IMG/VR virus record: IMGVR_UViG_3300050821_003995
Coordinates: 31,022-95,021 of that record
Reading direction: 5' to 3' (one strand)
Source: a virus
Length of the DNA stretch: 64,000 nt
This document shows, piece by piece, positions 3,169-7,994 of the stretch. Each line of letters starts with the position of its first letter. Positions within the stretch are counted from its first letter, which is position 1. The notes beneath the pieces were generated by a model. That model was not told the DNA's origin. It did no database searches and saw only the letters and a program-made list of their open reading frames with translations. A program made the translations under genes and the position numbers.

Positions 3169-3447
3169 TCACGTTCCATGTTTGTCTCCATACAGCATCT
3201 TGATCAGGTCCTGATCCATTTGATCATACATCCCGTCCAGTGCTGCCTTGCGTTCTTCCTCAACCTGAGCGTTGTATTCGTCCCACGTCATCGGTATGAG
3301 TTCCCGAATGACGCCGTTTTCACGCTTCATCGTGCCGCGTGCGCGCTTCTCAATGAACTCTGGAAGTGGGACACGGCGGGTGACAGTCTTCCAGAATGCC
3401 GCCAGGGCATTCGGCTTGAGGGTGTCGCTCTCAAACTCTGGTTCCAT
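3169..3447 (-). CDS. Hypothetical, IExxARGT-motif family
   Basis: PLPEFIEKRARGTMKRENG. Confidence 0.7.
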   Translation of the reverse strand: MEPEFESDTLKPNALAAFWKTVTRRVPLPEFIEKRARGTMKRENGVIRELIPMTWDEYNAQVEEERKAALDGMYDQMDQDLIKMLYGDKHGT

Positions 3448-4063
3448 GCTTCATCTCATTGCGCTTGCGGTCCAGCAGTTTCTTGATCTCATCTTTGGGC
3501 ATGGTGCCAAGCTTTGCCAACAGTTCGCGCACCTTGGGATCACGTGGCCGTGACCGTTCGGGTATCTTGCGACCAAGCATGGCGCAGCTATTGGCACGCT
3601 TGCGCTTGTGATCCTTGCCCGTCCACGTGATATAACCCAATAGTATTCCCAACGCGGCGGCACGTCCATATTCGTGGCTTGAGTAGGTAATGTGTTCTTC
3701 CCATGTTTGACCCTCGTGCTGCCTCATGGTGCCCTTGGCGCGTCCTTCAATAAACTCAGGCAGCGGGGTCGTCCCTTTGGGCAAGATCAGCCATTCACGA
3801 TGCTTGTGCTGCATGATCTTGAACGGCATGTTGGCCATCGCATCGCGCCACTTCTCAAACCAATAGCCTTTGTCGCGCGTGTCCCATTCGTGCTTGAGGG
3901 GAACCGCTTTGATCGCGGTGGCATTCTTTTGGTAACGGGTAAATGTTTCCAGAGCATCATCATCAGACGATGCTGGTGTCTTACACCAATCCTTATAGGG
4001 CTCTTGCTCATAGCCCAGGTTATCCAATGGCTGGTATTGCCAGTACCTTACGTCATACCACAT
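3431..4063 (-). CDS. Hypothetical, IExxARGT-motif family
   Basis: PLPEFIEGRAKGTMRQHEG. Confidence 0.7.
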   Translation of the reverse strand: MWYDVRYWQYQPLDNLGYEQEPYKDWCKTPASSDDDALETFTRYQKNATAIKAVPLKHEWDTRDKGYWFEKWRDAMANMPFKIMQHKHREWLILPKGTTPLPEFIEGRAKGTMRQHEGQTWEEHITYSSHEYGRAAALGILLGYITWTGKDHKRKRANSCAMLGRKIPERSRPRDPKVRELLAKLGTMPKDEIKKLLDRKRNEMKHGTRV

Positions 4064-4308
4064 ACCAGCACCCTAGCATATTGATAACGAGTTTGCAGCG
4101 AAAATTAAAGAGCCAGCGCCTTTCTATCGGCCGCTGGCTCCAGTTCCAAAAAGGTCCAATTTGGGGGGGTTACTTCATGCTCATCCTCCTAAGTCATTGC
4201 TGGTGCCACCCCACAATCACTTTGGCGTGCCCACACAGTAATTCACCTAACCGGCGAACTTGCAACAGAATTTTTGGACCGCATCGCATCAACTCGTAAT
4301 TAGGCGTA

Positions 4309-4339
4309 GTTTATTCGTTTGAAATTTGCTGTAGTGGTT
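4309..4339 (+). promoter_or_regulatory. Putative promoter GTTTATTCG-N14-TAGTGGTT upstream of structured RNA 2
   Basis: Matches 313-343; first stem starts at 4344. Confidence 0.55.
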
Positions 4340-4342
4340 AAG

Positions 4343-5012
4343 TGTGCCCTGTAGTCGTCACCTTGGCGGCTTTGACCGGGCACGTTTTGATAGGGGCACC
4401 TAACCCCTAGCTGCGCTGCCCCAGTGTACCGGGCAGCCTATGATAACAACGGGCAAACCTCAACCGTTGCCAAGCAAGCCGGTCAAACCGGCACGCTGCA
4501 CTTGATGGGATAAACTGATAATGCGTATGCCCCAATACGGTCAAAGCAAAAAGCGCCTTGTGGCGCCAATGCTGCCGCGCGAAAATGCGCTGCTTGGCCG
4601 TGTTCACTATCATGCAAAGCGTGACCGTAAAAAGTCACGCAACGATCACCGGGTGTACCATTGGGATATTGGCTTCAATAAAGTCGATAACGGCCCAAGG
4701 TTTTGAACGTCACTAAGCGGCAGGCAATTGGAAGGCAGCAGGGCAATTGATCCCGTAGGGTGGCCGTATCAGCCGTCCTATCCCGTCCCCCGGTTGCGTG
4801 GCACTTGATTGGGCCACGTCGGGCGTCAGCGGCGAAGCTATGCCCACAAGCCACTTGCAGATAATTGGCAAAAGGGCTGATCCACGTCAGCATCGTTCAT
4901 TTCAAATTAGATGACCCACCAAGTAAAATTCCAAGGTGAAAACCCTTGGCCGGGCGCTCCCCGCGCGAACATGGGCATTTGGTTTGAAGACCTGAGTGAT
5001 GTTGCCCCTGTC
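4343..5012 (+). ncRNA. Candidate large structured ncRNA 2 (~670 nt)
   Basis: More than a dozen hairpins (e.g. 4344-49/4378-83, 4415-21/4431-37, 4619-25/4634-40, 4756-64/4772-80, 4931-36/4944-49), multibranch stem 4538-48/4591-4600, long-range 4739-47/5001-10; G-U pairs on + strand; no credible ORF. Confidence 0.65.
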
Positions 5013-5014
5013 AG

Positions 5015-5494
5015 CTAACCTTTGATGCCAATAGAAGCGCGTGTTTTTCTTGAGGGTAAGTTCTGTGTTACGTGTTTCCAATACTTGCCCCGGCATATGT
5101 CCTGAACATAACCACGGTTTAGGCCATATTGCCGGGCAAGCTTCTTGTACCCCAATGGTGATGTGTAAAGAGCAATGACTTGTTCTTTAGTCAATTTAGC
5201 ATTGTGGTGGTTCTCACCACATCTTGCTAGATGATTGCAATTATACTTACCAGCCGCAGTGTTCTCAGTTGCTAAAATGCACTGAACATTGTTTGGATGA
5301 TAAGGGCCAACATCATTGTTCCGTGCCATTACATATTGACCATGATGCAACCCCCGCTTCTCAAACCAGCGGTAACCTAGGTGGTCTTCCCACCACTCAA
5401 CCCATTCATCGAATGTAAATTGAAACTTGATGCCCCGGTTCCTGGCGGCAGAACGCTGCCAACTAAAAGCATCACGTATTCTATCTTTTGACAT
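5015..5494 (-). CDS. HNH-type homing endonuclease with C-terminal HTH
   Basis: RGIKFQFTFDEW..WW..LG..RG..GQYVMAR..DVGPY...NVQCI; AKLTKEQV..LARQYG tail. Confidence 0.75.
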   Translation of the reverse strand: MSKDRIRDAFSWQRSAARNRGIKFQFTFDEWVEWWEDHLGYRWFEKRGLHHGQYVMARNNDVGPYHPNNVQCILATENTAAGKYNCNHLARCGENHHNAKLTKEQVIALYTSPLGYKKLARQYGLNRGYVQDICRGKYWKHVTQNLPSRKTRASIGIKG

Positions 5495-5566
5495 AAGTGC
5501 CCCTTGATTGAATTGTATATAACAACACATAACCCGACCCCACAACCTCAAACTAAGGAGACTGCA

Positions 5567-7568: not shown

Positions 7569-7994
7569 TTAGATGTGTTTCCAAGTTTTTCTAGCTCTAA
7601 TCAACCAAATGTTATTATGGACTACCTTGTATCTTTTAGCTAATAGGGAGAGTGGCTCTTTTGATGCCCTGATTTCCAAAACTTGTTTTTCAGTCAACTT
7701 AGAACACGCACATGCAGACCCAATAGCTTCTTCACGCTCAGCCGTATTGGTTCGATTGGTTATACATTTTATGTTTCCCCTTTCGTAAGGCCCCTTATCG
7801 CCTTTGCGGGCCATGCAGTATTTGCCCGCACCACGTCCACGCAATTCAAACCAATTTGAGCCTAGTTGCTCGACCCACCACACAATCCAGTCTTGCACTG
7901 TAAACTTAAACCCAATGCGCCGGCAACGAGCCATGCGACGTTGGTTCCAATAGGCTGTTCGATGAGCATAAGGGATAGGACTACGGTGTGACAC
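7569..7994 (-). CDS. HNH-type homing endonuclease with C-terminal HTH
   Basis: IGFKFT..DW..WW..LG..RGRG.GKYCMAR.GD.GPY..GNIKCI; opposite strand, AT-richer. Confidence 0.75.
   Translation of the reverse strand: MSHRSPIPYAHRTAYWNQRRMARCRRIGFKFTVQDWIVWWVEQLGSNWFELRGRGAGKYCMARKGDKGPYERGNIKCITNRTNTAEREEAIGSACACSKLTEKQVLEIRASKEPLSLLAKRYKVVHNNIWLIRARKTWKHI

Follow-up and report, generated by a model that had tools for sequence, protein, structure and literature searches.

What kind of element occupies the point at which the two main gene blocks of an uncultured phage diverge? The window that we analysed, a 64,000-nt stretch of DNA, comprises bases 31,022-95,021 of a 95-kb IMG/VR virus record (IMGVR_UViG_3300050821_003995) that is rated 100% complete. 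Near its left end an initial annotation had placed a large and nearly continuously paired RNA, which it took to be a phage noncoding RNA, possibly of a new class. Based on our results, we conclude that about 4305-5023 on the plus strand is one conserved expression unit, made up of a structured leader, a 61-codon gene and a 3' domain (Table 1), and that the element fits the description of a structured mRNA, or of a dual-function RNA, heading an operon better than that of a pure noncoding RNA. The comparisons below establish its anatomy, strand, covariation and coding status, and its single-copy position at the block divergence.

Table 1. Features of the unit and its neighbours (positions in the window).
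Feature	Position	Strand	Basis or details
Left-hand neighbour, first gene of the leftward block	3431-4063	-	210 aa, no family; anchor for finding related phages
Conserved upstream DNA blocks (GAACTTnCAAnc... and AyTCGTA)	4256-4298	+	alignments
Near-invariant block TTTATTCGTTTGAAAT	4310-4325	+	alignment
Leader hairpin H1, two-tier stem	4344-4383	+	4344-48/4379-83, 4351-52/4375-76, 4353-58/4366-71
Leader hairpin H2 (UAGGG/CCCUA type)	4391-4409	+	4391-95/4405-09
Leader hairpin H3	4415-4437	+	7-bp stem 4415-21/4431-37, conserved loop CAGUGnAC
Conserved linker CCTATG..AACAAyAACGGGCAAAC and weak hairpin H4	4438-4477	+	invariant columns; H4 4447-52/4464-69
Leader hairpin H5	4478-4492	+	4478-83/4487-92
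Invariant CGCTGCACTTGAyG, purine-rich stretch, start codon	4493-4520	+	alignment
ORF, predicted 61-aa basic protein (MRMPQYGQSKKRL...)	4521-4706	+	186 nt; conserved in all homologues
Helix A	4535-42 (codons 5-8) / 4596-4603 (codons 26-28)	+	pairs kept in 6/6
Hairpin B (CGUGA/UCACG)	4619-24/4635-40	+	invariant in 6 sequences
3' domain part A, multi-branch hairpins	4709-4862	+	e.g. 4755-64/4772-81, 4798-4805/4811-17, 4818-30/4837-47 (window MFE)
3' domain part B, long interrupted stem around invariant core	4871-4918 / 4972-5023	+	window MFE
HNH-endonuclease-like gene, right-hand neighbour	5015-5551	-	phrog_16521 1.4e-19; phrog_59 HNH endonuclease 3.7e-6; context, outside the unit

Results

Genomic setting of the unit

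Long minus-strand ORFs fill 1-35 kb of the genome. A plus-strand block extends from about 5,750 to about 50,900 of the window and is followed by a minus-strand block, and the flagged stretch sits exactly where the leftward and the rightward (replication) blocks diverge. Viewed over the whole genome, the layout is one of two large divergent blocks, with the minus strand used at 1-35 kb and 82-95 kb and the plus strand at 35.3-82 kb. The plus-strand block carries genes for an AAA ATPase, a DnaB-like helicase, a second helicase, a DNA polymerase and an SbcC-like nuclease; the closest cultured relatives of the ATPase are only ~32% identical. One sequencing run only, from a soil metagenome and possibly the one that gave rise to the record, contains the stretch in full, and no RNA-type run is listed as containing it. 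The genome has no ORF for a giant virion RNA polymerase, and N4-like hairpin promoters were rejected for that reason.

The unit is present once. Searched with a covariance model of the leader, each of the three phage records has exactly one copy, and neither the leader nor its motifs recur elsewhere in the genome. In related phages, same-strand ORFs with no assigned function start ~30-60 nt downstream of the unit. In the window, an HNH gene on the opposite strand intervenes between the unit and the rightward genes and overlaps the final bases of the 3' stem of the unit. This gene is missing at the equivalent place in the relatives, where L091 has same-strand ORFs, and because of that absence it looks like a homing endonuclease or other mobile insertion behind the RNA unit. 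A second minus-strand ORF, 7569-7994, matches phrog_16521 as the HNH gene does (E of 4e-18 and 1e-19, respectively).

A location at the strand-switch point, at the head of a replication module, would also suit a replication-origin element, either a primer or pre-primer RNA or a set of hairpins formed in ssDNA at the switch of gene blocks. Structured primer transcripts of this kind are known from ColE1-type plasmids. However, the locus lacks iterons and an AT-rich unwinding tract, the minimum of the cumulative GC skew is ~4 kb to its right, and an embedded conserved protein gene would not be expected of an origin. We therefore regard an origin as very unlikely.

On the leftward side, 0.25 kb separates the first gene from the RNA unit in the window (4064-4308), vs ~0.8 kb in L091 (1468-2290), where the extra DNA holds only short, unconserved ORFs of no family. 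Upstream of the leftward gene there is a perfect 9-bp hairpin (GAGCCAGCG...CGCTGGCTC, window 4110-4143) and, on the minus strand at about 4165-4195, a strong Shine-Dalgarno sequence followed by a mini-ORF of 2-4 codons (TAGGAGGATGAGCATGAAGTAA). Both may be leader features of the leftward operon. A second RNA candidate at 345-960 gave no match to the leader model, and attempts to align it with the stretch of L002 that is syntenic to it did not succeed. A promoter motif that the unit seemed to share with this candidate (313-321) reduces to the 9-mer GTTTATTCG; by our own estimate, 9-mer repeats in such numbers would arise by chance in 64 kb.

Homologues and database searches

Related phages were found through the left-hand gene and consist of two IMG/VR records of 76 and 78 kb. 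The nucleotide identity of 4288-4737 to these relatives (79% and 68%) is above the amino-acid identity of the neighbouring protein (61% and 51%). Further loci came from a protein search with the 61-codon ORF and then a scan of JGI metagenome contigs. With an identical copy removed, the comparison set is six distinct full sequences: the window, L091, L092, L087, L088 and L090. The five homologues are two IMG/VR phage records and three JGI metagenome contigs, and an extra sequence, L089, is a 5'-truncated near-copy. Covariation was assessed across these six distinct sequences.

Neither the RNA nor the protein has been described: the RNA motifs are absent from Rfam and the protein family is absent from Pfam and PHROGs. 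Rfam 15 cmscan of the whole window at gathering thresholds gave no matches, and at E<=10 the segment 3900-5300 gave just two, both at chance level and outside or antisense to the element, so that no relevant family was found even at this threshold. The initial annotation had seen no tmRNA or intron core, and we agree. ARAGORN found no tRNA or tmRNA genes in the window. A group I or group II intron is rejected because there is no Rfam intron match, intergenic DNA flanks the element, and relatives that lack the HNH gene have the element too. The region had no blastn match among 50,697 GenBank phages, and tblastn of the small protein and one distant relative against the same phages found none either. 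Of the 21 and 63 loci given by exact-motif scans of IMG/VR, the homologous ones are the two known relatives only, and protein-pattern scans of IMG/VR again returned these two and no others. A scan of GTDB genomes found none, and the Atlas search gave no usable match. The clade is small and consists of uncultured phages from soil and freshwater, with records of ~76-95 kb.

A leader with covarying hairpins

Upstream of the leader, AyTCGTA sits a fixed 12 nt ahead of a TTATTCG motif, and the conserved DNA blocks there are a possible promoter or operator region; sigma-70 promoter scans found none conserved among the homologues. Either the RNA starts with the near-invariant block that follows, or this block is a promoter-proximal element. 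The conserved 14-mer TATTCGTTTGmAAT has no second copy in the window. UCGUU (4315-4319) can pair with GAUGG (4504-4508) in a 5-bp helix that is changed on one side only, and this helix could close the leader over the purine-rich stretch ahead of the AUG.

Nearly all the helices listed in the initial annotation are present in the sequence, and RNAalifold on the alignment of homologues recovers most of them: 4344-49/4378-83 enclosing 4353-58/4366-71, the stems of H2, H3 and H5 as given in Table 1, helix A, hairpin B, 4757-64/4772-79 and 4931-36/4944-49. With five other distinct sequences available, most helices proved to be kept by compensatory changes. H1 forms when the homologues are folded; in the five sequences that carry it, it is 100% paired and 5 of its pairs have changed on both sides, and it is deleted in L090. 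H2 is also 100% paired, and its closing pair exchanges among U-A, A-U and C-G. H3 is 100% paired in 7 sequences, with 4 pairs changed on both sides. Together H1, H2 and H3 have 11 pairs changed on both sides in a model-guided alignment. H5 was misaligned in the column-wise pair count; with each sequence folded alone, every homologue forms a hairpin of 4-6 bp there, with five different stems (GCCGGU/ACCGGC, GCGGG/CCCGC, GCGCC/GGCGC, GGGC/GCCC and CGGG/CCCG). H4, another of the annotated helices, is poorly supported, its 5-6 bp forming in only three of the six sequences.

Over the whole leader, 90.5% of cells are paired, vs 31-46% when the partners are slid by 1-3 columns. Thirteen pairs are changed on both sides, and none of 500 column shuffles did as well, although three of the six sequences are close to one another and covariation counts here are inflated by that shared ancestry. 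The blocks between the hairpins are single-stranded and invariant (GCUGAGC, CCUAUG...AACGGGCAAAC and CGCUGCACUUGAyG). These patterns of substitution show a leader of ~210 nt (about 4305-4520) in which four covarying hairpins, H1, H2, H3 and H5, are joined by invariant linkers.

A conserved gene within the RNA

The initial annotation had found no credible ORF in the stretch, and here it was wrong. The frame at 4521-4706 is open in every homologue, at 58-62 codons. Pairwise Nei-Gojobori dN/dS values of 0.10-0.43 indicate purifying selection, and substitutions are biased to the third codon position (5, 9, 26; 12, 9, 33; and 8, 9, 21). The lengths differ by 3, 6 or 9 nt, with indels only in multiples of three. 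Serine codons switch between AGC and TCA, and Arg-Lys-Lys is replaced by Lys-Arg-Lys. The start codon is kept as ATG, or as GTG in one homologue; no canonical Shine-Dalgarno sequence precedes it. Gene callers in Logan, JGI and ENA assemblies each called the protein independently. The ORF therefore changes as a protein evolves, and we conclude from these substitutions that it is in all likelihood a genuine protein-coding gene, the first of a new family of small basic proteins with at least 16 members.

A profile search of 1.84 billion representatives gave nine relatives at 50% clustering, and the alignment has 16 members. They include forms of 74-101 aa with an N-terminal M-x-A-P-Q-Y-G, a variable middle and then R-D-K-R-x-S-R-N-D-x-R-x-x-x-W. 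Nine members had no Pfam match at E<=10, and PHROG and PDB searches found none. No hydrophobic stretch occurs in the translated sequence, which is hydrophilic and basic, and a type I toxin-antitoxin system of the hok/sok kind was rejected because its toxin would be a small hydrophobic membrane protein. The protein, with its basic stretches KKR and KRDRKKSRNDHR, is modelled as coil and matches no family. The AlphaFold2 model is mostly coil (pLDDT 53) and too poor for a fold search, and the protein is probably disordered.

Two distant relatives, P0015 and P0018, have gene calls that extend upstream of the conserved Met, and the extension (G-H/Q-T-L-P-P-F...) is common to both; it may come from a conserved leader RNA whose sequence is by chance open in that frame. 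Longer fused forms were considered and set aside. Only P0018, a 211-aa call on a 1-kb contig, would qualify, and its first 136 residues look like read-through of the leader.

The helices that the initial annotation drew at 4538-4640 fall within this coding sequence, and two of them leave a trace in its codons. Only three conserved residues with 4- or 6-fold degenerate codons never vary in codon, Gly26 (GGC), Arg35 (CGT) and Ser40 (TCA), and all three lie inside helix A or hairpin B, with the GGC and CGT codons of the helix A region frozen at their synonymous sites. All ten of the other conserved residues of this kind use two or three codons; nine are outside the helices and the tenth, Gly7, is at a wobble-tolerant position of helix A. 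In L088, one C-G pair of helix A has become U-A at the cost of an Arg-to-His change. Since frozen synonymous sites are confined to helices A and B, RNA and coding constraints appear to overlap there, and these sites mark two RNA helices that evidently constrain the coding sequence.

The unit could still be a purely noncoding, ornate RNA resembling GOLLD or ROOL, with the ORF an untranslated by-product of constraints on the RNA. The extensive covarying structure, the lack of an Rfam match and the helices inside the ORF are all as such an RNA would have them. But third-position bias, dN/dS well under 1, the serine and Arg/Lys swaps, in-frame indels and a kept start are properties of a translated gene, the protein belongs to a family with variable central inserts, and the alifold covariation term across the ORF is unfavourable overall (+4.0). 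A noncoding reading seems to us highly improbable, and both the conserved 61-codon ORF and the absent covariance-model match speak against an RNA of the GOLLD/ROOL type. Of the proposal of a large noncoding RNA of a new class, what stands is a conserved structure absent from Rfam 15; freedom from ORFs does not, as the central 186 nt are coding.

The 3' domain

Directly past the stop codon the 3' domain opens with an invariant GTCAyTAAGCGGCArGC. In the window, 4740-4900 cannot be aligned in sequence to the relatives, and its own MFE structure puts hairpins at equivalent places. In the relatives, the region equivalent to part A contains helices 3-9, with covariation in helices 4, 5, 6, 8 and 9. 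Alifold on the five relatives gives 80 pairs in 13 helices for the whole domain, which is closed by pairing of the bases just past the stop codon with bases just ahead of the next gene. The long-range closing helix of the initial annotation (4739-47/5001-10) was not recovered, and the MFE structure of the window closes with 4871-81/5010-23.

In the five relatives 89.5% of the cells of the domain are paired vs 32-43% in slid controls, and 19 pairs are changed on both sides vs 2-9, with none of 500 shuffles as good, for a structural model derived from the same five related sequences on which it was tested. Most of the exchanges are in helices 6, 10 and 12, and helices 10 and 12 have 6 and 3 pairs, respectively, changed on both sides. 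The invariant core of the domain consists of CCCAnnAGTAAAATT (RNA CCCAnnAGUAAAAUU), a covarying hairpin (4931-36/4944-49), CCGGGCGCTCCCCGCG (4950-65; CCGGGCGyUCCCCGCG) and TGGG, and in all sequences a U-rich tract comes after it. The alignment and predicted folds thus point to a multi-helix structure of ~310 nt (4707-5023) built around an invariant core.

On the plus strand, a terminator-like hairpin with a T-tract was flagged in one relative only, L091, where it is weak and lies behind the 3' core. On the minus strand, the covarying hairpin (4931-4949) followed by AAUUUUAC (4923-4930) scores as terminator-like in the window and in L092, and the invariant GTAAAAT of the core could be the U-tract of a minus-strand or bidirectional terminator. 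The same GTAAAAT could be read as a -10 hexamer, with just two sequences offering a passable -35. A conserved minus-strand ORF under the domain was also rejected, as the open frame differs among homologues and L090 has an early stop, and reading of the alignment led us to reject a conserved plus-strand ORF.

Strand and folding energy

The initial annotation had assigned the folded RNA to the plus strand, antisense to the flanking genes, and the homologues bear this out. In the supported helices G.U cells outnumber A.C cells by 11:2 in the leader and by 57:9 in the 3' domain, and the alifold energy is better on the plus strand in four of four alignments (-25.4 vs -21.2, -73.2 vs -57.4, -40.3 vs -36.7 and -23.5 vs -21.5). 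The ORF is on the same strand as the folded RNA.

Comparison with shuffled sequences, a check proposed in the initial annotation, was less uniform. The whole region has a folding z-score of -3.8 on the plus strand vs -1.4 on the minus strand (only 20 shuffles), the 3' domain -1.2 vs +0.9, and the ORF part alone -3.5, but the leader does better on the minus strand (-2.2 vs -2.8). Such single-sequence z-scores are modest and are weaker support for the structure.

The unremarkable z-scores of the leader and 3' domain would fit an ordinary mRNA for a small protein, in which hairpins in the UTRs serve stability or processing only (protection from RNases, sites for RNase III or E) and have no specific partner. 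Phage early mRNAs are commonly protected by stable 5' hairpins and 3' stem-loops. However, generic stabilisers have no need of invariant linkers and loops, of a 300-nt closed domain or of frozen synonymous sites in the ORF, and we consider it rather unlikely that the structures do nothing else.

Discussion

We tentatively favour, as possible though short of probable, a reading in which RNA and protein form a cis- or auto-regulatory module that controls both ORF translation and read-through to the replication genes. The RNA structures would act in cis as a regulatory platform of their own transcript. The small basic protein would be the RNA partner, binding its own leader, the 3' core or both. 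Since helices take in the start region and codons 5-28, binding might set the protein's own translation. It might also determine if RNA polymerase halts at the weak terminator-like hairpin with its U-tract or continues into the downstream replication genes. This scheme would follow the logic of N and nut without sequence homology to them. The single copy at the block divergence and the position directly upstream of same-strand ORFs in the relatives speak for such a module. Against it, there is no conserved sigma-70 promoter and no boxA-like motif in the homologues, and the terminator-like hairpin is weak and found in one relative only. In addition, four hairpins and a 300-nt closed domain would far exceed the RNA used by known nut or put sites.

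The data behind the cis-acting module also fit a discrete trans-acting RNA. In that case a separate transcript of ~680 nt would both encode the protein and bind host or phage mRNAs or proteins, following the logic of RNAIII or SgrS. Structure throughout the unit, even inside the ORF, is compatible with this, as are the terminator-like element at the 3' end and the invariant single-stranded segments and loops (CAGUGnAC, UUCCAC and UUCCCC), which are more conserved than the stems. But no target complementarity was identified, the same-strand genes within ~30-60 nt in the relatives suit a leader better, and the terminator is weak. We think a trans-acting role unlikely, though worth keeping in view. 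RNAIII of Staphylococcus is a dual-function RNA of ~0.5-0.7 kb in which numerous hairpins flank a short ORF on either side, and the unit resembles it in size and in this arrangement. The two are unrelated in sequence, however; the ORF of the unit is longer and strongly conserved as a protein, and there is no evidence of targets for base-pairing in trans.

Among known systems, the arrangement would seem closest in logic to lambda pL-nutL-N and to the autoregulated leaders of RNA-binding proteins. In lambda, a small, basic, disordered RNA-binding protein is encoded by the first gene of an early operon, behind a structured leader of ~200 nt that carries its RNA site, and N serves to carry RNA polymerase into the downstream early and replication genes (PMC2724277, PMC2800207). 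The unit likewise has a gene for a small basic protein behind a structured leader at the head of an operon. In contrast to lambda, the unit lacks a boxB-type 5-bp hairpin with a GAAAA-type loop, and boxA (CGCUCUUA / UGCUCUUUA; consensus from PMC2724277), sought within one mismatch, is not conserved in any of the six homologues. The protein has no detectable similarity to any family, and there is far more RNA structure, including the 300-nt 3' domain. Because there is no boxA and no relative of known function is detectable for the protein, the unit does not appear to be a member of the N/nut family.

Leaders of the ribosomal-protein and T4 gene 32 type are autoregulatory, with a nucleic-acid-binding protein encoded behind a structured leader. 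Similarly, the small basic protein of the unit could bind the structured leader ahead of its gene and repress its own translation. Unlike those proteins it belongs to no ribosomal or other family, and the additional 3' domain has no counterpart there. The GOLLD and ROOL RNAs share with the unit a conserved multi-helix structure of several hundred nt and an association with phages (PMC5737381; bioRxiv 10.1101/2024.12.08.627333). The unit differs from them in having no Rfam match at E<=10, in that a third of its RNA is a translated-looking gene, and in being represented by six distinct DNA sequences only.

A bolder possibility, which we doubt but would not dismiss, is that the ~700-nt RNA and its own 61-aa disordered basic protein form a dedicated RNP. 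The unit would then be a new class of ornate phage RNA that doubles as the mRNA of its partner, and it could switch these soil phages between their leftward and rightward programmes as a master control, for instance as a processive antitermination RNP, or one that modifies RNA polymerase, of a new type with no relation to N/nut, put or Q.

To our knowledge, few large RNAs other than those of ribosomes, introns and a handful of orphan classes have many covarying helices, and almost none overlap a conserved protein gene. If the structures are plain mRNA stabilisers, the result would be a modest annotation, one new small gene with its UTRs. As it stands, an undescribed RNA motif and an undescribed small-protein family are locked together at what looks like a control point of an uncultured phage group, and the frozen synonymous codons show cleanly how RNA structure can constrain a coding sequence. 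If the protein does bind its own RNA, the two would constitute a compact new RNP for the control of phage gene expression.
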